Below are positions 24,171 through 48,971 of a stretch of DNA of 64,000 bases, in pieces (position 1 is the first letter of the stretch; the number at the start of each line of letters is the position of its first letter). The notes beneath the pieces are model-generated. The model had not been told where the DNA came from. It saw only the letters and a list, made by a program, of their open reading frames with translations, and did no database searches. The position numbers and the translations under genes are program-made. Origin of the DNA: Rickettsiales bacterium (GTDB lineage: Bacteria > Pseudomonadota > Alphaproteobacteria > Rickettsiales > CANDYO01); NCBI GenBank assembly GCA_965228885.1, contig OZ245841.1, forward strand, positions 1,464,348-1,528,347. Direction: 5' to 3'.

Positions 24171-25670
<1,500 letters not shown>

Positions 25671-26274: not shown

Positions 26275-26329
26275 GATTTGTTGGTGTGCCCAGTAGGATT
26301 CGAACCTACGACCCTTTGATTAAAAGTCA
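26275..26329 (-). repeat. att direct repeat (3' part of tRNA-Lys)
   Basis: GATTTGTTGGTGTGCCC...TTAAAAGTCA identical to 48965-49019. Confidence 0.95.
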
Positions 26330-26523: not shown

Positions 26524-26535
26524 TTGGTATTTATT

Positions 26536-27690
26536 ATGAGTAAAGCGATAAAACTTACAAAAAGAATTATAGATAATATGGTCGCAGAAAAAGATTGGGA
26601 TGTTAGATGGGATGCTGAATTGCCAGGATTTGGAATAAGACTATATGCAGGTGGCAAGAAATCCTTTGTACTTTCCTATCGTGCTAGTGGACAGAAAAAA
26701 CTAATGGTAATTGGAAATTATGGAGCGCTCACATTAGATGAAGCTAGAAATATTGCAAAAACTAAGCTTGCTGAAATAATTCAAGGAAAAGATCCTGCTA
26801 TAGAAAAGCTAAGACTGAGCAAAAATTTTAAATTTTCAGATTTTGCTAATAAATATATCGAGAATTATGCTATAAAACACAAAAAGACTTGGGAAGAAGA
26901 TAAAAGAAAAATTGAAAAACATCTTTTACCTATTTGGGCTAATAAATCAATAAAATCAATCACAAGAAATGATATACTTGCTTTACATAATCAAATTGGT
27001 GAGAAAACACCTTATGAAGCTAATAGACTTCTTAGACAATTATCTAAAATGTTCGAACTTGCTAAAGATTGGAATTATTTAGATCATTCTGATAGCAATC
27101 CTGCAAAAGGAATTAAACTGTTTAAAGAAATTAAGCGTGACAGATGGCTCAGCCACAATGAATTGCCAAAATTAATTGAAGCAGTCGATAAAGAGCAAAA
27201 TCTTTATGCTAGAATTGCCATTTGGTTATACCTACTCACTGGTATGCGTAAAACTGAATTACTAACAGCCAAATGGTCTGATATTGATTTTGACCGTAAA
27301 GAAATTCGCTTAAATGATACTAAAGCTGGTAGAGTTCATTATGTGCCATTAAGTGAAGCAGCAATAGATTTATTAAGCCGAGTACCAAAACTTAAAGGAA
27401 ATCCATATATAATACCTGGCAATATTTCAGGAAAGCATTTGATAAATATTGCTAAGCCTTGGAATAGAATAAAAAAAGCAGCTAATCTTGAAGACGTTAG
27501 ATTGCATGATTTACGCAGAACTGTTGGCTCCTGGCTTGCTCAGTCTGGGAATAGCCTGCACCTAATAGGCAAGGTCTTAAACCATTCCAATCAAAGTACA
27601 ACAGCGGTTTATGCTAGATTTGCTCAAGATGATGTGAGAAATGCATTAGAGAATCATGGTAAATTAATCATCTCAAAAGCAAGAAAGTGA
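26536..27690 (+). CDS. tyrosine integrase with N-terminal arm-binding domain
   Basis: WDAELPGFGIR arm domain; catalytic R (TGMRK), K, HDLRR, H, Y intact. Confidence 0.95.
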   Translation: MSKAIKLTKRIIDNMVAEKDWDVRWDAELPGFGIRLYAGGKKSFVLSYRASGQKKLMVIGNYGALTLDEARNIAKTKLAEIIQGKDPAIEKLRLSKNFKFSDFANKYIENYAIKHKKTWEEDKRKIEKHLLPIWANKSIKSITRNDILALHNQIGEKTPYEANRLLRQLSKMFELAKDWNYLDHSDSNPAKGIKLFKEIKRDRWLSHNELPKLIEAVDKEQNLYARIAIWLYLLTGMRKTELLTAKWSDIDFDRKEIRLNDTKAGRVHYVPLSEAAIDLLSRVPKLKGNPYIIPGNISGKHLINIAKPWNRIKKAANLEDVRLHDLRRTVGSWLAQSGNSLHLIGKVLNHSNQSTTAVYARFAQDDVRNALENHGKLIISKARK

Positions 27691-28843: not shown

Positions 28844-29611
28844 ATGAATAAGTTAGATACTTTACTTAACGATGCTCCTAAAAATACTGTAATACTAGAT
28901 AGTTGGTTAAAAAAACATTTAATATCCAATAGCTTAAAACAAAAATATTTGCAATATGGTTGGTTAAGATCAATAGGACGTGGAGCGAGTTATTTAAAAG
29001 ATAATCCACCTGATTGGCAAGGAGCAATAAGTGCAATGCAAGAAGCTGGAATAAATCTTCATGTAGGGGGGAAAACAGCATTACAACTTCAAGGTACAGG
29101 GCATTTCATAGCACCTAAACTTTCTAACCTTTATCTTTATGAGCATTCTAATCAAAGATTACCTTCTTGGTTTTTGCAGTATGATTGGCAAATACAAATA
29201 CATTATTGCAATACAGCTTTTATACCAGTGAACTTAGGAATACAAAACTTTAAAACAGATAATGGCACAATATTAAGAATATCTACAACAGAAAGAGCTA
29301 TATTAGAGTTACTTTATCTTGTTCCAAAAGCACAAGGAATAGAGGAAGCTTATTATATAATAGAAAATCTAAATTCTCTTCAGGCTGAATTATTACAAGA
29401 ATTGCTAGAATCTTGTCATTCGATAAAAGTTAGGCGATTATTTTTCTGCCTAAGTGAAAGAGCTGGTCATAGTTGGGTGAAATTACTCAATAAAGAGAAA
29501 ATAGATTTTGGCTCAGGAAAAAGACATATAGTAACTGGTGGATATCTTGATCCTGCTTATAATATAACATTACCAAAAAGTTGGAGAGAAAATGAAGAAC
29601 CAGTATTTTGA
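28844..29611 (+). CDS. type IV TA antitoxin, AbiEi family
   Basis: GWLRSIGRG, HVGGKTALQLQG, ERAILELL, KVRRLF, GSGKR. Confidence 0.88.
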   Translation: MNKLDTLLNDAPKNTVILDSWLKKHLISNSLKQKYLQYGWLRSIGRGASYLKDNPPDWQGAISAMQEAGINLHVGGKTALQLQGTGHFIAPKLSNLYLYEHSNQRLPSWFLQYDWQIQIHYCNTAFIPVNLGIQNFKTDNGTILRISTTERAILELLYLVPKAQGIEEAYYIIENLNSLQAELLQELLESCHSIKVRRLFFCLSERAGHSWVKLLNKEKIDFGSGKRHIVTGGYLDPAYNITLPKSWRENEEPVF

Positions 29612-30503
29612 TCAAGTAAAATTACTACTAAAAATATTACCATTTGCTCTGAAGAATCCTAATTTTGCCTTAAAAGGCGGGACGGCGATTAATTTATTTT
29701 TCCGTGATATGACAAGACTGTCAGTTGATATTGATCTCTGCTATTTAAAATTAGCTCCAAGAGAGGAAGCTTTAAAAGAAATAGAGTCAGGACTTGAAGC
29801 TATTGCTTCCAATATCATAAACCATTTTCCTGATATGTACGCAGAAACAAAATATACTAAAGATAATCAAGCTAAGAATATAGTAGTATCAGAAAATGAA
29901 GTTACGGTAAAAATAGAGATAAACTTAATTGTGAGAAGTGCTCTTTATCCTTGTGTTACTATAGACCTTTGTCCTGCAGCAAGCAAAAGTTTTAATAGCA
30001 AAATCTCAGCGCGCTGCCTTGATTTTGCAGATATTTATGGAGGCAAAATATGTGCAGCTTTGGATAGGCAGCATCCAAGAGATTGGTATGATTGTTGGAT
30101 TTTATTGGAGAATGAAGGGATAACAGAGAGAATTCGTAAAGCTTTCTTATTGTACCTACTCAGTGGAAAAAGGCCAATTTATGAAATGTTGGATCCATTG
30201 TCAGTAGATCAGAGATTGCTTTTTACCAACGAACTAGAAGGCATGAATGAATTTATACCTGATTATAAAACATTATCAGAAGTAAGAATAAGATTAGTTA
30301 AAGAATTGCAAAACACCATCACAGAAGATGAACGCTTATTTTTACTTTCTTTCAAAAAAGGCGCTCCTGAATGGAAAAGAAGTGGAATTGCTGGTTTAGA
30401 AAATTTTCCTGCAGTAAAATGGAAGTTGCTGAATGTACAAAAGATGAGCGCTGAAAAACAACGTGGCGCACTCAGTAAGCTAAAGCAGGTATTATTATTG
30501 TAA
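29592..30503 (+). CDS. type IV TA nucleotidyltransferase toxin, AbiEii family
   Basis: FALKGGTAINLF..RLSVDIDL, GKICAALDRQHPRD. Confidence 0.92.
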   Translation: MKNQYFDQVKLLLKILPFALKNPNFALKGGTAINLFFRDMTRLSVDIDLCYLKLAPREEALKEIESGLEAIASNIINHFPDMYAETKYTKDNQAKNIVVSENEVTVKIEINLIVRSALYPCVTIDLCPAASKSFNSKISARCLDFADIYGGKICAALDRQHPRDWYDCWILLENEGITERIRKAFLLYLLSGKRPIYEMLDPLSVDQRLLFTNELEGMNEFIPDYKTLSEVRIRLVKELQNTITEDERLFLLSFKKGAPEWKRSGIAGLENFPAVKWKLLNVQKMSAEKQRGALSKLKQVLLL

Positions 30504-30696: not shown

Positions 30697-33600
30697 GTGA
30701 ATCAAAAAATTTTTATGTTTAACGATTATCAATATAATATTGAGGATGTTAAGAATCATGTTTCTTATACTGATTTTGCTAGAGGTGTAGCATATCATAG
30801 TCAAAATAGAGTAAGCAATCTAAAAGCAGAAAAAAACAAATTAGCTGCTAATGTACAAGGAACTAGATTTAGGCCTTATGATGTTGAAGCACAAATTATT
30901 AATGAACAAGGAAAAAAATCTTTTATTGCCACTTGTTCATGTCCTGTGGCTTTTGGATGTAAGCATATTGTGGCCACTTTACTCTCAGGGATTGATCATT
31001 TCTCTAATGTAACTTCTATACAAAATATTTCTCAACCTCAGCCAATAAAATTAAATTATCATCTATCTAATTGGATTGAAAGCTTAAGTCCTAAAGCAAA
31101 AGATAATGATTCTGGTAAATTATTGATCTATATAATTGAAGGTTCAACTAAAGCTAATGTAGCATTCAAAGTTTCTTCACTAACCATTAGTGTACTTAAG
31201 AAGGGAATGTTTGGCGTATCTAAGCCTTATAGATTGGATCAGATTCACAATCCTGCTAAGTATGTACAAGAAGATGATTTAATGATCCTGCGGTTCATTT
31301 CATCCCTTATGCCATATTATTACGGAGGTTATAATACTCATGATATTCCAGTCACTCTAGATGCGAACATATTATTGCAATTACTTATAAAAACTGGCAG
31401 ATGTTACTTGCCGAATCCATATTTCCCAGAAAAGAACTTGTCTATTGGTGAATCACGTAAAGCTTTTATAAGCTGGAAAGCTGAATCTGATGGCTCTCAG
31501 AGCATAAAGATAGATGTAGATGGGGTGTCCTTTCCTATTATTATGCCAATGTATCCCCCGTACTATATTTGCCCTAACACAAGAACTATAGGAATGCTAC
31601 AAACAGATATGCCTGATAAGCAAGCCGTTGCCTTACTTAGAGCCCCTACTATTTCCCCTGAACAAGTGGCTCTTGTTAGTGAAAAACTATCATCAATATT
31701 AACAAATCCTGAGTTAATGCCCAAAGCTTTACCTATACGTAAACTTGAAATAAAACCTATCCCTCATCTGAAATTAACCAGTATTAAAATACAACCTAAG
31801 AAAAAAGGTTGGGGCTATAGTAATCAAGATCATGTGGAAATTGCGGCAGCAAATCTATATTTTGATTATCAAGGTAAAAAATTAAACCATAATGATAGCA
31901 CGCAAGAAATTACTAGTTATAAAAATGGTGAAGTTTTGAGCATACAAAGAGATAAGATTTTTGAACAAGGCTGCACAGAACTTCTAAAACATATGGGAAT
32001 GACCCTTAGGTTAGGAGATGTAGACGATTATTACAATACAAAACAAGAACATAAAAACATTATAACTATTGGAAATATCCAAGAAGAATTCCATAAAGAG
32101 GCAAATTTAAGTACATCTTGGACAAAATTCACTAAGGAAAGCATACCAAAACTTAAAGAAATGGAATGGCAAATTAAAATGGATAAAGTTTTTCCATATA
32201 ATATTGTTGAGGTTGATGATGAATGGTACGCTAACATTGATGAGGGCAGTGAAATCGACTGGTTCAGTGTAGAGCTCGGGGTTACTGTGGAAGGGCAGCA
32301 CTTTAACTTGGTGCCTATTTTACTAGATTTACTTAAAAATAATAAAGATTTTTCTGCTAAAGAATCTTTGTTTATTCCTATGAAAGATGGACGTAAATTG
32401 TCTATCCCATCAGATCGAGCCCAAATATTACTAAATACCTTAGAACATATATTTAGTTTCCAGAATCTTAGCAATAAAAATAATAAACTGAACTTACAAA
32501 AATTAGATGCCGCTTTGATAGCTGAGATAGAGACTGCTGCAGAATCTTTAAACATGCGTTGGTTCGGTGGAGATAAAATACGCAGCTTAGGAAAACGTTT
32601 AAAAGAATTTACTGAAATTTCTTCTTCAAATATCACAAAAAATTTTAAAGGTGAGTTACGACATTATCAACAAGATGGATTAAATTGGTTACAATTCCTG
32701 CGTGAATTTGAACTAGCTGGTATTTTGGCTGATGATATGGGACTTGGAAAAACAGTGCAAGTTCTTGCGCATATTGCAAAAGAAAAAGAAGAAGGTAGGT
32801 TAGAGAGTCCTATTTTAGTTGTTGCTCCGACTAGTCTAATGGTGAATTGGAGAATGGAAGCAGAACGATTTGTTCCAGATTTAAAGGTTATAACTTTGCA
32901 TGGTGCAAATAGAAAAAAGCATTTTAATGAAATAAAGCAATATGATTTAGTCCTTACTACATATCCTCTTTTAGCTCGTGATAAAGATAACTTACTGAAT
33001 TATAAATACCATACAGTTATTCTTGATGAAGCTCAGATTATTAAGAATACTCGCGCCAAAGTAACTCAGATAGCCAACCAGCTGAAATCACAGCATCGTT
33101 TATGCTTAACAGGAACACCGCTAGAAAATCATTTGGGAGAATTATGGTCGTTATTTAATTTTCTTCTTCCTGGTTATTTAGGTACTCAACAACAATTTGG
33201 TACTTTATTTCGCAATCCCATTGAAAAGAATGGAGATGCAACCAAGGGGCAAATTTTATTAAAAAGAATAAAACCTTTTATTCTTAGACGCACTAAACAA
33301 CAAGTGGTTACTGAGCTTCCTCCAAAAACTGAAATGATTCGAAAGATTGAATTAGAGGGTGTACAGCGTGATTTATATGAAACAATCCGAGTAAGCATGC
33401 ATAAAAAGATTCTAAAAGAAATAAAGGCTCGTGGAATGGATAAGAGTCATATAATTATATTAGACGCATTGTTGAAGTTGCGTCAGGTTTGCTGTGATCC
33501 AGCACTACTTAAGATGAATATAGCTAAGAATATTACCGAATCAGCAAAATGTAATGAATTAATGAACATGATTCCTGCAATGATCGAAGAAGGACGTAAA

Positions 33601-34053
33601 ATTTTATTGTTTTCTCAATTTACCAGCATGCTTGCATTAATTGAAAAACAATTAGATTTGCTTAAAATTCCATATGTGAAGCTAACTGGGCAAACTAAAG
33701 ATCGTGAAAGTCCTATACGTGATTTTCAAGAAGGAAAAGTACCATTATTTTTAATTAGCTTAAAAGCTGGTGGAACTGGACTTAATCTAACTAGTGCTGA
33801 TACTGTTATTCATTATGATCCATGGTGGAATCCTGCTGTTGAGAATCAAGCCACTGACCGAGCTTATAGAATTGGTCAAGATAAACCAGTTTTTGTCTAT
33901 AAATTAATTACTGTCGGTACAGTAGAAGAGAAAATTCTTGAGATGCAAGAGAAAAAACGTAAACTTGCCGATGCACTTTTCAACCCTTCAGAACAATCCA
34001 ACTCGAAACTAACCTCTGAAGATATTCAAACCTTATTTGAGCCGCTTGAATAA
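30697..34053 (+). CDS. SWIM Zn-finger SNF2-family helicase
   Basis: CSC..CKH SWIM; DDMGLGKT, DEAQ, TGTP.EN, GLNLT.AD, WNPA.E.QA.DRAYRIGQ. Confidence 0.93.
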   Translation: MNQKIFMFNDYQYNIEDVKNHVSYTDFARGVAYHSQNRVSNLKAEKNKLAANVQGTRFRPYDVEAQIINEQGKKSFIATCSCPVAFGCKHIVATLLSGIDHFSNVTSIQNISQPQPIKLNYHLSNWIESLSPKAKDNDSGKLLIYIIEGSTKANVAFKVSSLTISVLKKGMFGVSKPYRLDQIHNPAKYVQEDDLMILRFISSLMPYYYGGYNTHDIPVTLDANILLQLLIKTGRCYLPNPYFPEKNLSIGESRKAFISWKAESDGSQSIKIDVDGVSFPIIMPMYPPYYICPNTRTIGMLQTDMPDKQAVALLRAPTISPEQVALVSEKLSSILTNPELMPKALPIRKLEIKPIPHLKLTSIKIQPKKKGWGYSNQDHVEIAAANLYFDYQGKKLNHNDSTQEITSYKNGEVLSIQRDKIFEQGCTELLKHMGMTLRLGDVDDYYNTKQEHKNIITIGNIQEEFHKEANLSTSWTKFTKESIPKLKEMEWQIKMDKVFPYNIVEVDDEWYANIDEGSEIDWFSVELGVTVEGQHFNLVPILLDLLKNNKDFSAKESLFIPMKDGRKLSIPSDRAQILLNTLEHIFSFQNLSNKNNKLNLQKLDAALIAEIETAAESLNMRWFGGDKIRSLGKRLKEFTEISSSNITKNFKGELRHYQQDGLNWLQFLREFELAGILADDMGLGKTVQVLAHIAKEKEEGRLESPILVVAPTSLMVNWRMEAERFVPDLKVITLHGANRKKHFNEIKQYDLVLTTYPLLARDKDNLLNYKYHTVILDEAQIIKNTRAKVTQIANQLKSQHRLCLTGTPLENHLGELWSLFNFLLPGYLGTQQQFGTLFRNPIEKNGDATKGQILLKRIKPFILRRTKQQVVTELPPKTEMIRKIELEGVQRDLYETIRVSMHKKILKEIKARGMDKSHIIILDALLKLRQVCCDPALLKMNIAKNITESAKCNELMNMIPAMIEEGRKILLFSQFTSMLALIEKQLDLLKIPYVKLTGQTKDRESPIRDFQEGKVPLFLISLKAGGTGLNLTSADTVIHYDPWWNPAVENQATDRAYRIGQDKPVFVYKLITVGTVEEKILEMQEKKRKLADALFNPSEQSNSKLTSEDIQTLFEPLE

Positions 34054-34371
34054 TTTTAGAGTAATGCGCAATATTCGAAACTGAAGTTCAAGCGCCACTT
34101 ATGGCTATTGCTAATGAAATTGTAATTTCAGTAACATAACTTGAAGATAAGTTTTGAATAAAGAATCTTACGGCAGAGCCGATTCGCGCGACCACACCAT
34201 TGCATCAATATGAGTTTTAAAGAGGTCCCTATAGACTAATGAGTTTGAGACTATATATACGATCTATATATCTAAATTGTAGAAGTGTCAGACAATGTAT
34301 AGACAAATTTGTAGATACTTCTATATTAAAGGAGTTGAGAGCTATATAACTTGTATATACTAAAACATCTC

Positions 34372-35124
34372 CTAAAGAATAAAACTAGATTGATTAAATT
34401 TATTTGAAATTGCCTCAAATAATTGACTCTTACTATTAACCTCTAACTTAAGTTTTATATGACTTATATGCACTTCCACAGTTTTAGGAGCAATATTTAA
34501 AGTACGAGCTATCTCTTTTGCTGTTTTTCCCATTATTATTAAACGGGCACATTCAATTTCTCTATATGTAAGAAAGTTCTCTTTGAGGCTACATGAAATA
34601 TCAATTGATATTAAAGCTTTTTTGAAAAAAAATAAATCATTTCTCTCTATTAATAAATTACTACAAAAATCTATAACATTCTCAAGTTTAATTATATTAG
34701 TGAAACAAAAATCATGAAATTGTGGTATGTCGGCTTGTCCTATAAAAGCCCACATTTCTACATAATCTTTTTGTCTCTTGTATATATCAAAACCTTGGTC
34801 AAGTTTATGGCTGTGATTAAATTCTAGTAAAGAATCTAGCTTATTGTAACTCCAAGCACAATATACACTAGAAACAGATGATATAGCTTTTGTAAGTTTT
34901 TCTTGGAACAAGGTGTTATCAAAATAAGAAAAATTTAATAACCAGTTATTTAAGTATTGTTCATTTGTTGTTAGCATAGTTACATAATTATCTTTATATA
35001 TCCTGAAATAAAATAGATCTTTACCTAAAACTATATCTTTAATTGGTTTGCAAATTTCTAAAAATGAATAAGCTAAATTATTAGCATTATAATGCTGTAA
35101 GTATTGTTCATTATTATGTTTCAT
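34372..35124 (-). CDS. LuxR-type HTH regulator, array paralog 4
   Basis: LTYREIEC..GKTAKEIARTLNIAPKTVEVH. Confidence 0.85.
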   Translation of the reverse strand: MKHNNEQYLQHYNANNLAYSFLEICKPIKDIVLGKDLFYFRIYKDNYVTMLTTNEQYLNNWLLNFSYFDNTLFQEKLTKAISSVSSVYCAWSYNKLDSLLEFNHSHKLDQGFDIYKRQKDYVEMWAFIGQADIPQFHDFCFTNIIKLENVIDFCSNLLIERNDLFFFKKALISIDISCSLKENFLTYREIECARLIIMGKTAKEIARTLNIAPKTVEVHISHIKLKLEVNSKSQLFEAISNKFNQSSFIL

Positions 35125-35143
35125 ATATATTCTCCTACCATTC

Positions 35144-35875
35144 TTATAAAGAATCCTTATATAAATTAATTAAGTTATGCTTATAACTACATCCTGTTTT
35201 TTGTTTAATGTTATTTATATAAACCTCAACAGTTCTTGAAGATAAATTTAAATCTCTAGCTATTTCTTTTGTGGTCTTACCTAATATGATTAATCTTGTA
35301 CATTCTACTTCTCTATAAGTAAGAAAATTTTTGTTAAAAGAAGAAGCAAGGTTAAGTGGGATGAAAGCTTTTTTCTCTAAGAATAAACTTCCCTGTTGAG
35401 TTATAGGAGTACTACATAAATCAATTAAATCATTAAGTTTATTGATGTTGTTGATACAAAAGTCATGAAATAATGGTTGATTGGTTTTACCTATAAAACT
35501 CCATAATTCCACGTGATCCTTTTGTCTTCTATATATATCGAATCCTTGATCCATTGCATAAGAGTGATCAAATTCTAATAATGCATCCTGCTTTACATAT
35601 TCCCATACACAATATACATCGATAACAGAATTTATTGCTTGTTTTATTTTATCTCTAAATAATGTCAAATCATAATTGCTAAACATCATTAACCAATTAT
35701 TCATCCAAGAACTTGCTGTCGTTAAGATAATCATAGTATCATCTGGGTATATCCTCATATATGAAACCTCTTTAAAGTTTAGCTCTTTAAGAAAAGTAGA
35801 GCATATTTCAGAGAATAATCTAGATAAATCAGAAGAGTGATAAAATTGCAAAAATTGATCATTATTGAGTTTCAT
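35144..35875 (-). CDS. LuxR-type HTH regulator, array paralog 3
   Basis: LTYREVEC..GKTTKEIARDLNLSSRTVE; ATG 35875 after AGGAGA. Confidence 0.85.
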   Translation of the reverse strand: MKLNNDQFLQFYHSSDLSRLFSEICSTFLKELNFKEVSYMRIYPDDTMIILTTASSWMNNWLMMFSNYDLTLFRDKIKQAINSVIDVYCVWEYVKQDALLEFDHSYAMDQGFDIYRRQKDHVELWSFIGKTNQPLFHDFCINNINKLNDLIDLCSTPITQQGSLFLEKKAFIPLNLASSFNKNFLTYREVECTRLIILGKTTKEIARDLNLSSRTVEVYINNIKQKTGCSYKHNLINLYKDSL

Positions 35876-35894
35876 ATGCTTTTCTCCTATAAAA

Positions 35895-36626
35895 TCAATA
35901 AACACCCTGATAAAATTTGATTAAGTCATGCTTATAATGACATCCTGTTTTTTGTTTTATATTATTTATATAAACTTCCACCGTTTTTGGCGATATATTT
36001 AAACCTCTAGCTATTTCTTTTGTAGTTTTGCCTAGTATGAGTAGTCTTGCGCATTCCGTTTCTCTTACCGTAAGCAAAACTTTACTAAAATTTGAACTAA
36101 GGTCTATAGGAATATTTGCCCTTTTATAAAAAAACAAATCCTTATTATGATTTAATTGCTTAGTACATAACTCTATTATTTCTTTAATTTTGCATAAATT
36201 ATTAATACAAAAATCATGAAATAAAGGTATTTCAGCGCTACCAGAAAAAGCCCACATTTCTACAAAGTCTTTTTTTCTTGTATATATATCAAAGCCTTGA
36301 TCTATTCTATATCGATGATTGAACTCTAATAATGGATCGTGTTTGTTGTAACTCCAAGCTCCATAAATATTATTAACTGAAGGGATAGATTTTTTTATTT
36401 TATCCTGAAAAAAAGTGTCGTTAAAATCATTAAAATAACTTAACCAGTTATTTATCCATTCTTTGTTTGTAGTAATGCTATAGATAGAGCCATCTTTGTA
36501 TACTCTACTATAATATATATCCTTTTTGAACATCATATTCTTAAGAGGTTTAACAATCTCTAAAAATGAATTGGATAAATTATTAGAATTATAATATTGT
36601 AAATATTCTTCATTTTTCTTTTCCAT
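35895..36626 (-). CDS. LuxR-type HTH regulator, array paralog 2
   Basis: LTVRETEC..GKTTKEIARGLNISPKTVE. Confidence 0.85.
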   Translation of the reverse strand: MEKKNEEYLQYYNSNNLSNSFLEIVKPLKNMMFKKDIYYSRVYKDGSIYSITTNKEWINNWLSYFNDFNDTFFQDKIKKSIPSVNNIYGAWSYNKHDPLLEFNHRYRIDQGFDIYTRKKDFVEMWAFSGSAEIPLFHDFCINNLCKIKEIIELCTKQLNHNKDLFFYKRANIPIDLSSNFSKVLLTVRETECARLLILGKTTKEIARGLNISPKTVEVYINNIKQKTGCHYKHDLIKFYQGVY

Positions 36627-36660
36627 AATATACCCCATAAAATAAAGGTTCTTATTTTTG

Positions 36661-37467
36661 TTATTTATATATCAAAAACATTTTTTTATTCTCATGATAA
36701 ATTTTTGCTAAATCGGATTTAGAGTAATGACCTATTTTACTCCTAATATTATTTATGTGTGTTTCTACAGTCTTTTCTGAAATTGATAACTCTTTCGCTA
36801 TACATTTATAAGTCAACCCTTTAGCTAGACCGGAAATGCACTTAGATTCTTTATTAGTAAATTTTTTTACTTTATTCTCTTTCATAAAATATAAATCTTG
36901 TTCTAGTGAGGGGGCATTTAATTTAAGGTTGTTTTCTTGACATGTTAAGTCTTTTATTTCTTTAAAATGCCCTAGTACATCTTCGTCTAGAGGAGTTAAT
37001 ATTCGTTGGGCTTTACTCCTAATATATAAAATAAACTCTTCTACAAACTTGGTATTATTTATAATAAAATTTGGTATTTGAGTATCTGAAATATCTCCTG
37101 CAAATGCAAAAGATTCTACAAAGTCATTTTCTCTATAATATATGGTTATACCATTCCAGATATTAAAAGAATGAAGTGCAGAAATTATAAAATCATTTGA
37201 TACTTGTGGCCATAAAAAATAAGTAAATTTTTTATGTATAGATTTTTGTATTGCTGTACTAAATACTGTTCCAAGATCTTTAATATTCACAAAATAGAAA
37301 TCTTGCCATTTGTGATGGTTACATAAGGCTAAATATTGACCATTTATAAAAAATTTTCTATAACCAAAAATTTTTATACCGCATTGGGAACATAAAGGCT
37401 CACAAAGCTTGTACAACTTTTCCGCATTTTCTTTATTATATTGAATAGAAAGTAGTTTATCACTCAT
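36661..37467 (-). CDS. LuxR-type HTH regulator, array paralog 1
   Basis: FTNKESKC..GLTYKCIAKELSISEKTVETH; GAGG RBS before ATG 37467. Confidence 0.85.
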   Translation of the reverse strand: MSDKLLSIQYNKENAEKLYKLCEPLCSQCGIKIFGYRKFFINGQYLALCNHHKWQDFYFVNIKDLGTVFSTAIQKSIHKKFTYFLWPQVSNDFIISALHSFNIWNGITIYYRENDFVESFAFAGDISDTQIPNFIINNTKFVEEFILYIRSKAQRILTPLDEDVLGHFKEIKDLTCQENNLKLNAPSLEQDLYFMKENKVKKFTNKESKCISGLAKGLTYKCIAKELSISEKTVETHINNIRSKIGHYSKSDLAKIYHENKKMFLIYK

Positions 37468-37729
37468 AGCAAACCTCTTTTTCATTAATTCTAATTAATC
37501 TTATTATAAAAATCTATAAGGGAAAAATACCTAGAAAAAACTTTTATTTTGAATCTTAAGTTTATCTCCGTATTTTTTACTTAGAGGTATTCACTCTAAG
37601 TATTCTTTCAGAATTATTTCTTCTCAAAATATATATTAAAAATATTTACATAAGGTAGTTAAACTCACACAAAGAAAAAACTGAAGTCTACCTTATTAAA
37701 TAACAACATATAATATATAGGAGGAAAAT

Positions 37730-38005
37730 ATGTGTTTAGATATTGTTTATAAATTAGTTTCAAGTCCAGTTGGAGGAACTTTAGATTATATAAATCAAGG
37801 TACTCTCAGAGCGGATAGTATTAATTACATTAGAAATAAGTCTCCAATAGAACATGCCGCTTGCGGAGCACTTGCTGGATATTTAGCTTACAAAGCTTAC
37901 CAAGATTACGTATTGAATAATGATTATTCTAACTTTCATCATTTAAGAGGATCAGATCATAATAATACTATTGTTGGAGAGGTAAATGACAGTATTAGTG
38001 ATTAG
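37730..38005 (+). CDS. small hypothetical protein divergent from the LuxR array
   Basis: AGGAGG RBS, 91 aa, followed by a strong hairpin. Confidence 0.7.
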   Translation: MCLDIVYKLVSSPVGGTLDYINQGTLRADSINYIRNKSPIEHAACGALAGYLAYKAYQDYVLNNDYSNFHHLRGSDHNNTIVGEVNDSISD

Positions 38006-38022
38006 GGTCTTAGTTCTTCATT

Positions 38023-38064
38023 ATAGCTACTCTATCTTTATACCCAAAGAAGTAGAGTAGCTAT
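38023..38064. terminator. hairpin between convergent genes
   Basis: ATAGCTACTCTA...TAGAGTAGCTAT. Confidence 0.65.
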
Positions 38065-38715
38065 TATTTATTTCTTATATGTGTAATCGATTAAAAGTGA
38101 TAAAATTAAATTTCTATTTCATCTTTAAAAAATTTTATTAATTCACTTTTAAAGTGAGTATTAGATTTAAGCTTGATATTATTTAAATTTTGCTCTACTG
38201 TTCTTGGTTTTACATTTATCTCAATAGCAATTTCTTTCATAGATAATCCATTAGAAAATTTTGATAAAATCTCAAATTCTCTTTTTGTAAGGTAAACTTT
38301 ATTATTCTTTCTTGAATAATATTTCTTCACTGGAAATAATATATTAGAATCGTCCAAATTTCCTTGAATGATATTGCTACTAGTATAAAATTCGTATTTT
38401 CTAATTTCTAAAGTAGGTAAAGTCATAAAAACTTGTTTTTCAGCTACTAATAATTCTTCGTGAAACTGCTCTTTGAAATAAGAAATAAATTCTTTTAGAA
38501 TTTTTAGGTTATTAGAGTAAAATTCTAAAATTTTATCGTTATTTCTTGAAGAAGAAAACCCATATACTTCGAAATATACGTCATATCTTGCATATAGCGT
38601 AATTCCATTCCAAATATCGTGCTCATACATTAATTTAAACATATCGTTAGATTTAATGGATGACCATGGCATACTTTTTAAATCCATATTAGCTTCTGCA
38701 CTTAAAACATAACTA

Positions 38716-39670
38716 TAGTGTTTCCTCTTTATAATTAGACCTGAAAAGCATAATCTACAGCGTCATTGAAATTTTCAAATTTGTGTTTATATTTTCTAAA
38801 TTTTCTCTTTAATACAGCCCATTGATTTTCAATTGGATTTAAGTCTGGAGAATATGCTGGTTGATATAGTAGACTGCAACCAACTGATTCTATAAGCTCT
38901 TTTGTTCTGGGTGATTTATGGAAGGCAGCGTTATCCATAATAACAACTTGACCTTCTTTAAGTTCTGGAAGTAGATATCTTTCAAGCCATATATTGAATC
39001 TTTGTGAATCAGTATAACCTGTAAAAACATAAGGAGCGATCATCTCTTTTTTCTTAGATAACCAAGCTGCTATAATTGAAATTCTTCCATATTTTCTCCC
39101 ATGAATCTCGGATATTACTTGCTCTCCACGTGGTGATCTGGCATAATCACGTTGGAGGAATTCATCAATTCCAGACTCATCAAGCCAAACTAACTTAGCA
39201 GGATCGATTTGCTCTATCTTGGATAGAAATTCTTGTCTTCTTTCTTCATTTCGTTCCGCGTACAATGTTGTTTTTTTTACGAGTGATACCAAACTTTTTA
39301 CAGCGTTTATGAATCGACTGAGGCCAACAATCGAATTGTTCAGAGAGTTCTTCTAATGTTGCGTCTGGAGTTTTATTAATAGCGGCTACTAGAAGATCCG
39401 AATCTATCTTACGAACCTTATATGCCTTGCGAGGAGAATCAGAAATTTTTCCTGTTAACTTAATATTCTTTATCCATGAAGCAATACTACCCTTACTAAT
39501 AGAAAATACTTTGCAGGCCTTATCCCAAGACATACCTTTAGAAATATTTTCTAGAACACATTTTCTAAAATCAGTGCTGTAACTCATAAAAACTCCTGTT
39601 TTAATAATTATATAAACAAGTATTATTATGGCAGAGCAGAAATTAGTTTATTTATAAAGAGGAAATACTA
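38716..39670 (-). mobile_element. IS630-family element
   Basis: IRs TAGTGTTTCCTCTTTATAA / TTATAAAGAGGAAATACTA; TA duplication. Confidence 0.92.
38735..39587 (-). CDS. IS630 transposase (two ORFs, probable -1 frameshift at A8)
   Basis: HTH ORF 39246-39587; DDE ORF with DESG, MDNAAFH, YSPDLNPIE; A8 run at 39271-39278. Confidence 0.9.
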
Positions 39671-40092
39671 TATATAAATCTAAATTATTATATAGATTTT
39701 TGATAAAAGCTACGTTAAGCCAATTTTCATTACTACAAAAGTGGATCTTTTTTCCTTGGTTTGTAATTTTCATGTAAGAAAAAGTTTTGATACCATAAGC
39801 TTCATCTAGAGGTTTACAAAATTGCCTTAATTTTCTAGATTGAAGTAAACTATACTCTTTGAACTCTAAAATTTTATTGGTATTTAGTAACATAAGTATT
39901 ACCTTTTTATACTAAAATGTCCCTTTATATATAATTAATGAAGTAAAATTTATTTATTTCTTTGTAGTACCTTCCTTTATAATTATGTAGTAGTTTTAAA
40001 TTTTTGCCATAATATACCAAAAACTTACTTTATTTTTAGTTATATATTAATTTTCAAGCAAGATAAAGCTTAATATCTTAATATGAAAGATT

Positions 40093-40904: not shown

Positions 40905-41731
40905 TTGATTCAAAGGTTAAAGCATGTTAGGATATTTTTGATTAGAATGAAAAATGGGGTTTTAATTACTATATCTTTCATAAATGATTTTTTAGCAGAT
41001 GAGAAGGATTTTAATCGTAAATTAAAAGCAGACGAATATTTAAGTCCTCATGAATTTCCTAATGCAAAAATAGAAAAAATAGGTTTTTTAGGAAAGGGTA
41101 CCATAAGGCCAGATGAAAAAGCCTGCGAAACATACACTTGTATTGCAGTGTCTGGACCAATATTTTTATTTGACCCCATTACAGGAAAGTCTGCAGGAGA
41201 AATTAAGATATCTCCATCTTCACTGCCATTATATCAAAACACGTGGGATATGTGTAATTCTGGTAAATATAAGTGCATAATAAATGAACATTTTGGAGCT
41301 ACATACAATTGTATAGGTTGGGCGCTTGGAATCAGTAAGTGGCTAAATCCATCTGAAATTAACTCATATATAAATATAGGCCTTAGTAAAGAAGAGGCAT
41401 TAAAAAAATTCATTGAAGTAAAAAGGTCTGTTTATCACAATGAGCATATTAATAATTTTGATAAAATAATTGATAAATTTAATTATATACATCCAGACTT
41501 ACAAAGTAAGCCTCTTAACAATACTATATCTTTTTATTTTAAAGACGGGAAATGCACACACGGAGCAAGATTTTTAAATACTTTTATGGATAAACCATTA
41601 GACTCCTGGACTTCGGTAGCAATTTAATAAGTCATACTGCATCAGATTTAACGGGTAATAATTCAATTTATGGGAATGAATTGCATTATGTTAGTATAAT
41701 TGGTGCCCATGATACAAATGACGAATTTTAA
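40905..41731 (+). pseudogene. papain-like YNC..WALG/H protein, frameshifted near C-terminus
   Basis: YNCIGWALG, THGAR, WTS then shifted frame GSNLISHTASDLTGNNSIYG..IIGAHDTNDEF. Confidence 0.55.
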
Positions 41732-41748: not shown

Positions 41749-42282
41749 ATGACATCTAGAGTTAACAACGAACGTGCATCAAATGATTTGTTTGGCTATA
41801 TTGGTAGTGTTTCAGATTACGTTACAATGAATAATTTTCAGAATCGTTATAAATCTCTAATACATGAGTATTTTAGCAAACCAGAATCCCGTCTATTATC
41901 TGAAATTGACGTAAGTAATTTAGAAACATATAAAAGTTGGACAATGACAGCTTTGCAAGAAAAAAACAAAATATACCCTTTGTTGATATCTAAAATTTTA
42001 CAAGGGGATATTTTTGCTCTTAATATTTATGATAATTTACATCAAGTTGATGGTAAATCTCAGCTAATTTTAAGTTATTCTAAAATTCATTCAGATCCTC
42101 TGTTAATGGAAAAATTTAATGCATATGGAAGCTCAGAGGATGCAAGAGCCATTTTAACGGCTGAATATTGGTTAAAAAGCCAAGAAGCAGTCGAACTAAT
42201 GGGACAGAATTCTGAGGGCCTAGAGAATTTATGTTCATTAACAGGTATGTTACATCTAAATAATGAATATATTATTTGCTAA
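41749..42282 (+). CDS. hypothetical protein
   Basis: GGAGGTG RBS; 177 aa; follows the previous gene by 17 bp. Confidence 0.7.
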   Translation: MTSRVNNERASNDLFGYIGSVSDYVTMNNFQNRYKSLIHEYFSKPESRLLSEIDVSNLETYKSWTMTALQEKNKIYPLLISKILQGDIFALNIYDNLHQVDGKSQLILSYSKIHSDPLLMEKFNAYGSSEDARAILTAEYWLKSQEAVELMGQNSEGLENLCSLTGMLHLNNEYIIC

Positions 42283-42372: not shown

Positions 42373-45170
42373 CTACCACATCTGCATTTTGAATTCTTTC
42401 TTTTGCATTTGATTTGCTTTAACATGATCACTCATTTTTACCTGATTTTGTAGTTCAGTGGCTGATGTTTGATTTCCATCGTTTTTTATTAGAGTTTTTT
42501 CTAGCTCCTGTTTGTTTTGTGTGAGGATTTTTATCTCATCCTGATGCCTTGATAAAGTTACCAGCCAAGATTTTTGTTCATTTAATAATTTATGATTTTC
42601 AATTGCAGCGATTGTATTAGCGTAAGTTTTGCCCTGTGAGGAATGCACTGTGATGCAATAGCCATAATCAGTATGTTTTAAAGCAGATATAGGAACAATT
42701 CTGGTGAGATTATTTTCAAATTGAAGTGATACTTTATCATTTCTTATTTGTTTGATAATAGCAGTTTCTGAATTTATAAGTCCAAACTCCTTATTATTCT
42801 GAGTAAAAATTATTTTTAGATTCTCTTGTAGTTTAAGTTGTTGCTCAGTAAATACGGTGAATTTATTGCTATAATCTATCGATAGTTTTAAATAGAATAG
42901 AACTTCTTTGCCATTTTCTTTTGCAAGAATAAGGCTATTAGTGAAACTATTGCATTTTTTAACTCGCAAAAATTCATTCTTTTCAATCTTATTTTTATAA
43001 GATTTGTTGAATTTTAAAATATCTCCTTCCTTATAATTCTGTACAAATCTCATCTCAGCTTTGCTCAAATCTTTTAGCCTTAATATATGATGTGATTTTC
43101 CTTTACCAGATAAGGTTCCTTCTTCTTGCAGCCCAGTTCTTATCTGATTATTAATAGCATCACGTAAACTTCTAGTAGGCGAGATTAGTAATGTGTTATT
43201 TCGTTTTTCCTTATCGACCCGAAGATAAGCATTTACAGCATCATTACTTAAATTCTTACTTTCAGCGATGTTATTATCATGAATTGCAAAAGTTTCTTTT
43301 ATTTTGCCTTGACTTGCAGCAATAATTGCTTGTTTGTGAGCTTGCTCTTTTTGCCTTACGATTTGTTTTAATTCAATCGGTTTAACTATTGATAAAATCT
43401 GCTTAAATGGCTTACCAGCTTCTACAGCAGAGAGTTGCTTTGGATCTCCCACTAAAACCATTCTGAACTTTAGCATGTCTTGTAGAGAAGTTAGTTTATG
43501 CATTACATTAGTTGAGATCAAGGAAGCTTCATCAACAAATATAATGGTATTTTTATATTCTTTGCTTAAACCGCATAGCGATTCTTTTGTGCCTCTACCT
43601 TCTAAATAACCCTGATATTTTGCTAAAAAGCTATGAATAGTATTAGACTCTATTTTAGCTGAACTTCCTAATGTTTTACTAGCAGAAGCAGTAGGTGCCA
43701 TTCCTTCAAATTCTTCATGTTTTATAAATAATCTGATGATTTTATTTAGCTTATGATCTGCAATGTCCCTAACGGAATTAAGTACTGTGGATTTACCTAC
43801 ACCTGGTAAGCCAACAACCGAAATAATATTATCTTTAGAAGAAAGAATATGCTTTGTAACTTTTTCTTGCTGATTATTCATTTGAAAATCGGGATTTTGT
43901 TTTAAAGACCTATTGATAAATTTCTTATAATGAGCCTTGAAATATTTTTCTTCTACTAGAGGTTTTGCTTTACCTATAGAATTTTGAGCATGTTTTAGAA
44001 TTTGTTTTTCTTTTGTTAGTAGGACTTTGCTAGTATATTGATTATTATACTCAATTAATGAACCTTGTTGTACCTGGTTTTTAAATTCCTGATCTATTTC
44101 TCTAATAGTATGATTACCTATAGATAATTTTAAAGCTTTCCTGGATAAATCTTCTTTAGTAAACACTGATTTATACTGTGTTACATCCTCTATGCATAAT
44201 TTTACTAAATCTTTTAAATCAAGTTTTTCATTGATTGAAGGGTCTGATGATTGTTCACACCCTTTACTCAGTTGATTCTCTTGAGTGATTTCTTGAATAA
44301 CCTTCTTCTCCAGTTTATGCCAAGCTTTAGTGATATCTTCTTGCAAACTTATGCTTTTAGATTTTCTAGAGTTAATAACTATTTTATCTCGGCCTTCCTT
44401 AGTAGTTACATTATAAAATTTACATAATTCTTCAATTTCCTTTCTCCTAGTAGAAAATGCATCAATTATTTTTGGGTGAACATGACTCAATTCAAACGAA
44501 CTACTACCATCTGATAAAATTGTTGGAGTAATGTCATAGCCTAATTTCTTAGTTTCAATTGCTAATTCATTACGGAATATCTGGCCAAAAAATTTGTTGT
44601 TCTTTAGGACTTCCTCGAAAGCAATACTTCTATATTTACCATCATCGCATTTAGCAGCGTTAGCTAATAAACAATGAATATGCGCTTGTGGCTCAACATT
44701 ACGATTAGTGCTATGCAAAAAGCAAGCAAATGTGAGTTTATTGACTGGCTCTTTTATTACGCTATTGTGACCTTTTCTAAATTTTACATAATTATTTTCT
44801 TCTATGTATTTTAGAGTATTATTCACTGCAATTTTAAAGCTGATTCTAGATTTTGTTTATTCTCATTATTAGCATAAATCAGCATCTCTATTGAAAAGCT
44901 CTTTGGAGCTGAGAAAGTTAAATCTACCCCTGTACAATGCTCTTCTTTACCATTAATTTTTCTAGCAAGCTTCTGACCATTAGGCATTTTCCCTTCAAGT
45001 AAGTCTATAAAGCTTTGATTATCTTTAGCCTTAAATTTACCAGAAAGATTAAAATCATCTTTAGCCCCTTCGCCAAACCAATAGCCTTGGGCCTCGCTTC
45101 CATAATAATCTCCATGAGAATAATAATTCGCTGCAGCGCTTGAACTTTTAAACACACGAGTTGATAACAT
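42373..45170 (-). pseudogene. MOBF (TrwC/TraI-like) relaxase-helicase, frameshifted
   Basis: NYYSHGDYY, DLTFSAPKS, H.TNR..PQAHIH, FSTRR, GLPGVGKS, VDEAS, GYCITVHSSQG; 1 bp missing near 44831-44835. Confidence 0.9.
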
Positions 45171-45203: not shown

Positions 45204-45548
45204 TTAAGATTTTCTTTTAATAATTTTATATCCATATGGCTCTCTTGCTATACGACTATACTCTAGAGCGTTTTTATCAATTTCCTCTATCTCATCTTGT
45301 TCATAATATTGTGTTAAAGCTTTTCTTTGGAAGTAAACCAATTTCAATAATAAATTGATGCTCAATATATTATGCCTCTCAATTGGAGTACTAGTGTACC
45401 GCTCATTTTCATCAAGCAAGTCAGTATTTTCGTTGAATAACTTCTTTCTCATATATTCACTTAGACTAAATCCAAATTGCTTAGCTATTTCCTGCAAAGC
45501 TTGTTTTTCTGACTTTGTCATTGATAATAAAAAATTTGTCTTTTTCAT
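45204..45548 (-). CDS. ribbon-helix-helix relaxosome accessory protein (MobC/TrwA-like)
   Basis: FLLSMTKSEKQALQEIAKQFGFSLSEYMR; directly upstream of relaxase. Confidence 0.7.
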   Translation of the reverse strand: MKKTNFLLSMTKSEKQALQEIAKQFGFSLSEYMRKKLFNENTDLLDENERYTSTPIERHNILSINLLLKLVYFQRKALTQYYEQDEIEEIDKNALEYSRIAREPYGYKIIKRKS

Positions 45549-45612
45549 AAATATTTCCTTATATTTCTTAGGGTGGGCACAGTATGCCTATCCTTTATAG
45601 TTAATCTAAAAA

Positions 45613-45924
45613 GTTACACCTGGTAACACCGGGGCTGGTTATCATTTTTATCCTGGTGTAACCAACAAATGCTGATAAAATAAGGCTTTAGGATAGGTGG
45701 TAACACAAGTTACACCGGTAACACCGAAAATTTAATGACTTTCAGACTTTTTGTTTTTTTATGCCTTATTATTTAGCAAAATTTTTGAAAAATTCTAAAA
45801 CCTATATTTTTGTGGTGTTACCGGTGTTACTTGTGTAACTTTATTCTCAATCCCTTGATATACTTAACTTCTTAAGTTACACCTTGACTTGATTTGAATA
45901 AAATCCAGGTGTTACCGGTGTAAC
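45613..45924. repeat. dyad-symmetric array of 12 GTWACACM octamers (putative replication origin)
   Basis: Units at 45613, 45623, 45655, 45700, 45709, 45718, 45814, 45823, 45832, 45876, 45908, 45917. Confidence 0.85.
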
Positions 45925-45937
45925 TTTTTTAGGTCAA

Positions 45938-47703
45938 TTAAATTAATATTTTATCAGCAATATGGTAAACCCTAATTTTACCAACATCAGGTAAATGCTT
46001 AACTTCCATACTCTTACCTTGACTATCTGGAATTAAAAAACCCTTTTGAATCAGATACTGACTAACTTGCCTATAATTTAATCCCTTACAAACTTCGTTT
46101 TTGTAAACTTCTGGTAAAATATAGTAATGAAATACTCCTTCGATTCTCTGTTTATAACCAGCTCGATCAATGGGCTTAATTAAAGAGGAAATATCACTAA
46201 TATTAATAAATCTACTTTCACCATATTTTTCCAAAAAAGATTTTACTTGGGCTATAGCTTTTTTTTGCTCTAAATCTTTAGTATTTCCTCGTTCAATGAG
46301 CCAAGATTTGAAACACTTAGATATTGCTTCTTGTGCGTCTCCTTGATTTAAGGAAGATAAAATTCCAAACTTAATTGCGAGCTCTCCAGCTGCTGCTATG
46401 AGTCCAAAGCGATTTGCAACTCTAGTTACTTGACCACTTGAACTTTCTGGTAAGTATTTATTCTTAAATTCTTGGCTAATTTGTTTAACTTGAGTAATTA
46501 CTGAATCAATATCAGCAGTGAAACCTTCAAGATATTTAGTAATTGCAGTACCATAATATTTACTACATGCATCTTTTAAATGTCTGGATAATAATTCTCC
46601 ATTTTTAAAACCATGTAGATCTTCAAATATACCAAATCCACTATTACAATTAGCAGGAATACTTACAAATCTTACTTCCATACCAGCAAAAGATCTTTTG
46701 TTGGTTTCTTGAACTTTAGTCGCGATATCAATTTCACCAGTGGAAAAAATAAGGGTGCCCCAATTGTGGACCTCCTTCATTGTAATATTGCTCTTAAGTC
46801 TTCTTTTTCCCTGATTATTAGCAAGCATATAAACCATGTCACTAACTGCCTTACTATCTGCCTGTGCAAGTTCATCCAAAGGTAATAAACAATCATTATG
46901 ATTTTGTGCAACCACTTCTAAAGCATTACAAGTAACTCTCCATTGCTTGATAAAGCTACTTGATCCCCAAACGCTAGCTGCTACTTGTAAAGCTGTAGTT
47001 TTACCAAGTGAGCTACTACCAACTAAATGAATTGCTCCACTTTCTTCGTTTACGAGTTTCAGTAACGGAGCGGCAAAACTACAAGATAAAGCCAAAATTA
47101 ACCTTGAATTATTATTAGCATATTTAGCTATATTGTTTTGCCAATCTTCTAAACTACCAGAAGATTCAAATTGCCTTTCTAGCTCAGTACTAGATTTTAA
47201 TACTAGTTCATTATTTATTGGATATATTGTACCAGGTAAAACGAAATGATTTCTATACCAACCAACGCTTCCAACTAAAGTAAATTTTCTAGATGGGAAT
47301 TCATTGAAATATAGCTAAGTAGTTTTTCTTTAGCTTTCTTGCTATAATTTATTTCGATTCCTTCTGATAAAAATTTATTGAGAATCTCTTTACCATCTCC
47401 GGCAAGTAATCCTGCTGGCATATACCATTTATGCTTCTTTCTGGTTTTTAAAGTTTCCCAAGACAGTAAAAGCCCATAATTATTATCATGTTCATCGCAA
47501 AAATATGCTTCAATATCAAAAGGAGATGAAAGCCACAGCTTCTCTCTATTTCTGGTTTTCTCGTCTACCTTATTATCAATATCTGCTATTAATTGCTTAA
47601 AGTTGTGAGTAGTAGGTTTGATGTTTTTTGCATCAATATTATTCTTTTCTGGAAGTAGATAACAAAGTGCATTTTTGTTTTTAATGTAATTTTCTAAACT
47701 CAC
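45938..47703 (-). pseudogene. DUF927-domain helicase/replication protein, frameshifted
   Basis: VGWYRNHFVLP, GSLEDW, SCSFAAPLL, GSSSLGKT, LDE, STGE, RVANRFGL; frame break near 47290-47310. Confidence 0.85.
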
Positions 47704-48812: not shown

Positions 48813-48971
48813 TGCTAATAGATAATGTTTATCGCACTTGAATATATAAATAATGCTATTAAGAGCAATTTTCAAGTTTTAGTCTAATTTGAAATTAATC
48901 CTGGTGGTCACTTATTGGTCACTTTTGATTTTTAGCGTTTTTAAAGAGTTTTCTGAATCCAGCAGATTTGT

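Follow-up and report, generated by a model that had tools for sequence, protein, structure and literature searches.

A large, very divergent clade of LuxR-type receptors, found as an ancient mosaic of tandem genes on an island at tRNA-Lys in a reduced Rickettsiales genome

What does a bacterium with a reduced intracellular genome sense with a row of five LuxR-type regulators and no gene for the synthesis of a signal? The question is raised by a stretch of 64,000 nucleotides (bases 1464348-1528347 of contig OZ245841.1, assembly GCA_965228885.1; hereafter the window) from a Rickettsiales bacterium, the genome of which is a single, complete contig of 1.55 Mb. An earlier reading of the window from its letters, here called the original prediction, described the five genes, P1 to P5, as an island-borne and duplicating bank of receptors with a non-canonical sensor pocket. 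We conclude that they are members of a large and still unnamed clade of very divergent LuxR-type receptors, and that their row is an old tandem mosaic carried by an island at tRNA-Lys. The account of their function that we favor, as probable but far from certain, is that they are one-component, ligand-gated transcription factors from a very divergent branch of the LuxR receptors, which respond to a small molecule other than an N-acyl-homoserine lactone (AHL) in the manner of LuxR solos. The genes and the features directly associated with them are as follows.

34372-35124, minus strand: P1, 250 amino acids, P1-P3 subfamily, GerE match at E 3.9e-17 (Pfam)
35144-35875, minus strand: P2, 243 amino acids from the ATG at 35875; the listed open reading frame (ORF) reaches a GTG at 35905
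35895-36626 or 36638, minus strand: P3, LuxR-type receptor of 243-247 amino acids
36661-37485, minus strand: P4, 274 amino acids, divergent subfamily, 24-26% identity to P1-P3
38106-38713, minus strand: C-terminal part of P5, with the rest of the ligand-binding domain (LBD) and the helix-turn-helix (HTH) up to the insertion point; ORF at 38106-38687, 193 amino acids
38716-39670, minus strand: IS630-family element of 955 bp, with two overlapping transposase ORFs and terminal inverted repeats
39673-39893, minus strand: N-terminal part of P5; ORF at 39648-39893, 81 amino acids
15133-15981, plus strand: P6, 282 amino acids, family member outside the island

The four intact, co-oriented genes with a LuxR-type HTH were located where they had been predicted (34372-37485), with gaps of 19, 19 and 22-34 bp along P1-P2-P3-P4, depending on the start codon chosen, and an AGGAG Shine-Dalgarno motif precedes the ATG in P1 and P2. 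GerE was matched in all five HTH-bearing array ORFs at E 2.5e-10 to 3.9e-17 (Pfam). The sixth homolog, announced at position 15133, is indeed present as P6, for which the GerE stretch (E 6e-9) comes from the whole-genome GerE search, P6 not having been scanned singly against Pfam. A profile search of the whole genome recovered two further full-length copies outside the window, P7 and P8 (at C1:1051931-1052725 and C1:438696-439505), which raises the count to eight. The genome-wide matches to GerE also number eight; they fall exactly on the P1-P8 loci and thus all belong to this receptor family.

The family had to be recognized by its N-terminal domain, for which standard models gave no answer. 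In the six array ORFs neither Autoind_bind nor PAS_4 (PF08448) was matched at E<=0.1 in Pfam, and PF03472 had no match anywhere in the genome in a search that matched the E. coli positive control. Searches of Pfam, of NCBIfam and, with profiles of 7 and of 75 sequences, of PDB matched the HTH and left the N-domain unmatched. The larger of these sets comprises the seven intact copies of this genome and 68 of the hits from the homologue searches; among its members GerE was matched in 74 of 75 and Autoind_bind in a single one, at a sub-threshold E of 2.9e-4, and PAS_4 is absent from the 25 listed of the 28 families matched. An exhaustive profile search with the N-domain only (seven own copies, 170 positions) was needed to find the relatives, a word-based homologue search having returned 5 outside relatives. 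At E<=0.001 the exhaustive search gave 2062 cluster representatives, of which 711 remained at E<=1e-10 and 12 at E<=1e-30; we take 711 as the safer family size, since canonical LuxR proteins may be present in the weak tail. Among the best 150 matches, nearly all have a length of 250-300 amino acids, and a cluster look-up of ten relatives returned generic names alone, "LuxR family" and "CsgD family."

The original prediction had proposed that the N-domains be modelled and compared with known receptors, and in this comparison the LBDs of AHL receptors came out on top for both P1 and P4. The AlphaFold2 models (predicted local distance difference test, pLDDT, 91.1 and predicted template-modelling score, pTM, 0.72 for P4; 90.9 and 0.83 for P1) both have a long helix at the N-terminus, a sheet of five strands with helices packed against it, and an HTH of four helices, which is reached through a linker of low confidence. 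In a Foldseek search of the PDB, the best match to P4 was SdiA (4lfu, E 2.1e-7), followed by QscR, RhlR, TraR, LasR and CviR; LBD-only entries aligned with template-modelling (TM) scores of 0.58-0.65 and root-mean-square deviations (rmsd) of 3.7-4.3 A, the LBD of YenR at a TM of 0.65. SdiA was also the best match to P1 (E 9.1e-9), with the LBDs of LasR and YenR at a TM of 0.62-0.66 and an rmsd of 3.1-4.4 A; for the LBD of LasR the TM was 0.62-0.65. For comparisons at the profile level, we used 29 canonical proteins, namely E. coli SdiA (NC_000913) and 28 Autoind_bind ORFs of alphaproteobacterial genomes, the unpublished genome G080 among them. Profile-profile alignment (hhalign) against this set gave a probability of 99.8% over the full length and, for the N-domains alone, 95.0% with an E of 3.8e-8 over 140 columns. 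Of the 30 clusters nearest in the ESM Atlas, 23 belong to a set that carries Autoind_bind. Because the Foldseek, profile-profile and ESM Atlas results agree, we conclude that the N-domain, as judged from models and profiles, is remotely homologous to the autoinducer-binding domain and is predicted to share its fold. A homodimer prediction for P1 (two copies, own alignment) scored 0.00 against a mark of 0.42 and is not used as evidence either way.

A fold of this kind makes it necessary to ask whether the proteins still bind AHLs, and here the residues of the pocket are informative. D70 and P71 (TraR numbering) hold the amide of the homoserine lactone, and W85 and G113 belong to the pocket scaffold. 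Together with W57 and Y61 they are the six hallmarks of AHL receptors, as given in the part of the source drawn on here (PMC10134790). The TraR numbering was fixed by way of the SdiA numbering and the invariant columns of the 29 canonical proteins, and the counts are given below for these proteins and for the 75 family members.

W57: canonical 24 of 29; family 39 of 75; W60 in P4
Y61: canonical 28 of 29; family 35 of 75, plus F in 10 and W in 9; Y64 in P4
D70: canonical 25 of 29; family 5 of 75, with G in 37; G72 in P4
P71: canonical 24 of 29; family 5 of 75; T73 in P4
W85: canonical 27 of 29; family 73 of 75; W92 in P4
G113: canonical 27 of 29; family 72 of 75; G112 in P4

The profile-profile alignment thus agrees with the original prediction, in which the equivalents of W57, Y61, W85 and G113 had been placed by eye and no DP had been seen. 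A D-P pair at the mapped columns was found in none of the seven intact copies of this genome, which sets their sensor domain apart from the classical type in spite of its AHL-receptor fold. When the 160 columns of the LBD are ranked by entropy, W85 comes 3rd and G113 5th, whereas the other four hallmarks range from 53rd to 125th.

Read at the columns of W57, Y61, D70 and P71, in this order, the pocket signatures are conserved within subfamilies across species and differ between subfamilies.

P1-P3 clade, including the G001 and G004 copies: Y/W, W, variable, T; mostly DQG for WNG (L in one G001 copy)
P4 group: W, Y, G, variable
P6 pair: V/I, Y, G, L
P7/P8 clade: C, W/F, mostly H, I
Subfamily confined to sister genomes: F/L, Y, D, P/S; close to the canonical motif

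Signatures of this kind fit diverged but functional pockets better than decay. The last-named, near-canonical subfamily (Y-D-P/S-W-G) is represented by L053:2756-3604 (G004), L052:15323-16162 (G001) and L056:1945-2811 (G003), and has no intact member in this genome.

We also considered the possibility that the proteins are eavesdroppers in the manner of SdiA, which would still bind the AHLs of other bacteria. Their fold and best structural matches are those of AHL receptors, with SdiA at the top, and the related subfamily of the sister genomes retains Y-D-P-W-G. However, the seven intact copies of this genome do not have the D-P pair at the mapped columns, all copies fall below the Pfam threshold for Autoind_bind, and the genome, with its lone 16S rRNA gene and 1.55 Mb, looks like that of an intracellular member of the Rickettsiales, for which foreign AHLs would be an unlikely cue. 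We regard this explanation as improbable. Somewhat more credible, but still unlikely in our judgement, is the hypothesis that the regulators are independent of any ligand, such that the N-domain serves in folding or oligomerisation, or in control by a partner protein, and the proteins act as constitutive or dosage-controlled activators or repressors. The scarcity of D70 and P71 in the family, the moderate conservation at the columns of W57 and Y61 (53rd and 64th of 160) and the failure to find a synthase in this genome or in five other carriers are what would be expected under such a hypothesis. It does not readily account for the near-invariance of the pocket scaffold at W85 and G113, for purifying selection on the N-domain that is as strong as that on the HTH, or for signatures that are conserved within and distinct between subfamilies, which suggest specific recognition, not drift.

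We therefore return to ligand-gated transcription factors as the account that we favor. In each protein, an N-terminal LBD with the predicted alpha/beta/alpha fold of the AHL receptors is joined through a short linker to a GerE HTH at the C-terminus. A small molecule, neither an AHL nor the product of a LuxI of the cell, would enter the pocket and stabilise or switch the protein, and thereby alter DNA binding and transcription. With at least three old subfamilies, each with a pocket signature of its own, the array could cover several ligands. We infer the gating by a ligand, the non-AHL nature of this ligand and the use of different ligands by different subfamilies; the first is inferred because control of folding or DNA binding by a ligand in the LBD is established for TraR, LasR, SdiA and solos with non-AHL ligands such as PluR, according to the part of the literature source consulted (PMC4235431).

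No LuxI (PF00765) was matched in the whole genome or in any of the 5 other carrier genomes, and the same search matched 21 of 121 genomes of the class, a tally that includes the unpublished genome G080. Because no LuxI was found in these genomes, the receptors are solos. The absence of luxI, which had been noted for the window, thus holds for the whole genome, and a full set of AHL residues with a cognate luxI elsewhere was not found. As to the DNA that the regulators might bind, a perfect palindrome with 9-bp arms and a 7-bp spacer at 37578-37602, the near edge of which is 93 bp upstream of the start of P4, is unique in the genome at <=2 mismatches and is a candidate operator or stem-loop. 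GC-containing palindromes with arms of >=7 bp were not found upstream of P1, P2, P5, P6, P7 or P8, and a promoter and terminator scan gave no enrichment (35 promoter-like sites against 40.7 expected).

How old is the array, and is it maintained? P1, P2 and P3 are 50-53% identical to each other, and by the Nei-Gojobori method the synonymous divergence (dS) among them is 1.2-1.7, with ratios of nonsynonymous to synonymous divergence (dN/dS) of 0.20-0.26 in the N-domain and 0.20-0.31 in the HTH, values that are approximate at such saturated dS. The estimate per domain, another check that had been proposed at the outset, thus indicates purifying selection in both domains and not neutral evolution. 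In a maximum-likelihood tree of 35 family members, the P1-P3 clade (support 100/100) includes copies from G001 and G004, and P1 pairs with a G004 copy (91/86). P6 is joined with its G001 orthologue (100/100), P7 and P8 cluster with copies from G001-G004 (100/100), P4 is weakly joined to a Holosporales copy (91/70), and the C-terminal part of P5 is unplaced. The three paralogs that the original prediction called close do form one clade, but their identity is modest for such a description and the motif quoted for them is one position short between H and DQG. The similarity in DNA of the HTH ends of P2 and P3 is real: it amounts to 85-86% over the last 40 codons, compared with 43-73% elsewhere. 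Because the high identity is confined to the 3' end and the dS of the HTH part is 0.66, the pattern indicates gene conversion at the 3' end of P2 and P3.

Since dS exceeds 1, the P1-P3 clade holds copies of other species, and P4 and P5 fall in other subfamilies, the array is best read from these divergences as an old mosaic of at least three subfamilies with one gene-conversion tract, not as a recent burst of duplication. The term "duplicating" was for this reason misleading, given a clade that spans two other species of the genus and the deep divergence of P4 and P5.

The fifth gene, P5, had been described as split by IS630, and the details bear this out. The element has precise borders and is flanked by a TA duplication at 38714-38715 and 39671-39672, and three further copies, about 88% identical, are present in the genome. 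Because in-silico excision of the element together with one TA yields a single open frame of 276 amino acids, the event is a clean insertion of IS630 into a full-length paralog. DNA contigs from two sequencing runs of one study, X1 and X2, were compared with the locus. The X1 contigs span both junctions of the element and cover 33000-38777 without any difference, though X1 is probably the source sample and so gives no independent support; X2 has the same sequence at low depth.

The island that carries the array is bounded by two identical 55-bp stretches in direct repeat, at 26275-26329 and 48965-49019 (the att repeats), which correspond to the 3' part of tRNA-Lys. These borders, together with an integrase, give substance to the description "island-borne." The main features are listed below.

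48972-49047, minus strand: tRNA-Lys, the integration site, overlapping the att repeat at 48965-49019
26275-26329, no strand assigned: att repeat at the distal end of the island, a 55-bp perfect copy of the 3' part of tRNA-Lys
26524-27690, plus strand: tyrosine integrase of 388 amino acids, apparently intact
28844-30503, plus strand: AbiEi/AbiEii type IV toxin-antitoxin pair, island cargo
30697-34053, plus strand: SWIM and SNF2 helicase of 1118 amino acids, island cargo, convergent with the array
42373-45170, minus strand: TrwC-type relaxase, split into ORFs 44823-45170 and 42373-44826
45204-47703, minus strand: NikA-like mobilisation protein and a DUF927 gene split into two ORFs

The island spans about 22.7 kb between the repeats, in the order integrase, addiction-module antidote protein, AbiEi/AbiEii, SWIM-SNF2 helicase and receptor array, followed by IS1 remnants, a DUF7689 protein, the split relaxase, the NikA-like protein and the split DUF927 gene. 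Among the island ORFs scanned, none was a type IV secretion gene. The tRNA-Lys element of which the array is cargo is integrative and was once mobilisable.

One may ask whether such cargo has any function at all, or has been kept by chance on a mobile element in decay. The relaxase and DUF927 genes are each split into two ORFs, one paralog is disrupted by an insertion sequence, and the GC content falls from 33.1% in the genome to 30.5% in the island and 26.0% in the array. Against this explanation, four ORFs of 243-274 amino acids have remained intact in spite of a dS >1, dN/dS is 0.2-0.3, orthologues are kept in other species and further copies outside the island, and the family accounts for all 8 GerE-type matches of the genome. 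We consider a chance survival of functionless genes to be very improbable. The statement that the array survives while the mobility genes decay nevertheless needs some modification: the two split genes are in line with it, but the integrase looks intact and one of the receptors is itself disrupted.

Several observations weigh against the ligand-gated interpretation or call for caution about it. The mapping of the residues is based on profile and multiple alignments at 14-18% identity, and around D70 it could be off by one column in P1-P3, since P1 and P2 have an Asp one column before the mapped D70. The members of sister genomes that keep Y-D-P-W-G make AHL-like ligands possible for some subfamilies. 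The inactivation of P5 by IS630 implies that at least this one of the five array copies is dispensable, and no operator common to the copies was found when palindromes upstream of them were compared. Finally, the saturation of dS leaves the inferred constraint approximate, and the tallies for the canonical set and the LuxI control both include one unpublished genome.

Beyond this genome, the family has 1-10 matches in each of five other genomes of the genus (5 of 5). In wider samples, it was matched in 1 of 35 further families of the order and, at E<=1e-8, in 2 of 400 other genomes drawn evenly from the phylum. Carriers among metagenome-assembled genomes (MAGs) include one member of the Holosporales, one of the Francisellaceae, five of the Alphaproteobacteria and one of the Gammaproteobacteria, a small sample of 8 loci collected with one peptide pattern from a 14-row alignment. 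Members are also present on plasmid pMegNEIS296 of the Candidatus Megaira endosymbiont of Mesostigma viride, where the annotation is just "helix-turn-helix transcriptional regulator," and on a Legionella adelaidensis plasmid, as "LuxR C-terminal-related." The tandem arrangement recurs, as triplets in G004:C6 and the Holosporales MAG and as pairs in G004:C153, in G001:C6 and in the Gammaproteobacteria MAG.

The neighbors at other loci are mixed: ankyrin and FG-GAP repeat proteins, SDF and MFS transporters, TauD and 2OG-Fe dioxygenases, methyltransferases, an integrase fragment, a TraG/VirD4 coupling protein and a histidine-kinase pair. The neighborhoods compared have no partner gene in common, and across the genus the synteny of the island is limited to matching fragments. 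The neighborhood in G002 is similar, but the one copy there is of the P7/P8 subfamily. In Rickettsia buchneri, a 275-amino-acid gene of the "luxR family" lies inside an aminoglycoside-synthesis cluster and is said, in the part of the source drawn on here, to resemble gammaproteobacterial proteins (PMC8770908). Its size fits the family, of which it may be a member.

Taken together, the relatives in this Rickettsiales genus, on the Candidatus Megaira plasmid and in the Holosporales, Legionella and Francisellaceae invite a bolder and decidedly speculative hypothesis. A hidden, mobile branch of LuxR proteins could be the main repertoire of small-molecule-sensing transcription factors in the intracellular symbionts of protists and algae, with subfamilies that read different host metabolites and are exchanged on islands and plasmids. 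Although we think it unlikely that this holds in full, it would, if true, provide bacteria that live inside eukaryotic cells with a toolkit for interkingdom sensing.

Some features in the surroundings of the copies may be recorded here. On the island, the plus-strand neighbors of the array are a DUF7689 protein and a 177-amino-acid protein without a Pfam match (40905-41627 and 41749-42282); these are presumably the "effector-like" genes that the original prediction placed under control of the regulators, and nothing ties them to the regulators. The SWIM-SNF2 helicase beside AbiEi/AbiEii may be a defence module. The lone 16S rRNA gene (24172-25670) is about 600 bp from the distal att repeat, and no 23S rRNA gene was matched in the window. 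IS200-type Y1 transposase ORFs of 151 amino acids each, with identical Pfam scores, stand one on each side of the island (13884-14339 and 52031-52486). One of them is just upstream of the pair formed by P6 and a small, co-oriented cupin gene (14695-15015, 106 amino acids) directly upstream of it. The G001 orthologue of P6 is instead flanked by genes for a TauD-like dioxygenase and for SDF and MFS transporters. P7 and P8 are each preceded on the same strand by a large gene (L007:2331-3755 and L008:2339-3754), encoding an acidic 474-amino-acid protein without a Pfam match and a 471-amino-acid TPR protein, and a copy of IS630 adjoins P7.

How does the family relate to systems already described? 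With the AHL-type receptors and solos (TraR, LasR, SdiA, QscR, PluR/PauR and OryR/XccR) it has in common the two-domain layout, the LBD fold, the GerE HTH, a length of about 250-280 amino acids and the equivalents of W85 and G113, and, as in the solos, there is no cognate LuxI. Altered hallmarks have been taken as a sign of non-AHL ligands, as in PluR (TYDQCS), PauR (TYDQYI) and plant-associated solos (W57M, Y61W), in the part of the source drawn on here (PMC4235431), and P1-P3 and P7/P8 likewise have W at the column of Y61. However, PluR, PauR and the plant-associated solos keep D70, whereas it is replaced here, mostly by G, and the sequences are too divergent for PF03472 (0 of 7 own copies and 1 of 75 members, below threshold).

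The clusters of PAS4-LuxR solos in Photorhabdus (plu0915-plu0925 and plu2001-plu2016), for which a role in host sensing has been proposed according to the same source (PMC4235431), are alike: there, too, a host-associated bacterium has many solos in tandem, their sensor motifs vary and a synthase is lacking. They carry the Pfam PAS_4 sensor, whereas the array ORFs are without a match to PAS_4 and structurally closest to the LBDs of AHL receptors, and in the present case the array resides on a tRNA-integrated element of a reduced Rickettsiales genome. The element itself resembles other integrative mobilisable elements inserted at tRNA genes in its tyrosine integrase, direct repeats of the tRNA 3' end, relaxase and NikA-like protein and toxin-antitoxin cargo, but its relaxase and DUF927 genes are split and its main cargo is a bank of regulators.

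Censuses of LuxR proteins define the receptors by PF03472, and in the parts of these sources drawn on here, they list Legionella, Rickettsia, Francisella and Wolbachia as being without such systems (PMC10134790; bioRxiv 10.64898/2026.01.11.698852). The named carriers found here belong to the intracellular or protist-associated lineages listed there as lacking LuxR systems, and such reports may arise because the receptors are defined in this way. A search of titles and abstracts on LuxR in the Rickettsiales or Megaira found nothing on this family; supplements, which might list such genes, were outside the search.

The findings point to a sizeable family of receptors with the same predicted fold that lies beyond the reach of censuses based on PF03472. 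The proteins are small and their models are of high confidence, which makes ligand screens feasible, and the importance of the family would rise if a ligand derived from the host were found. Since the reduced genomes of symbionts keep few regulators, the presence of eight copies of one receptor type, their pockets diverged, points to signals of importance inside the host cell.

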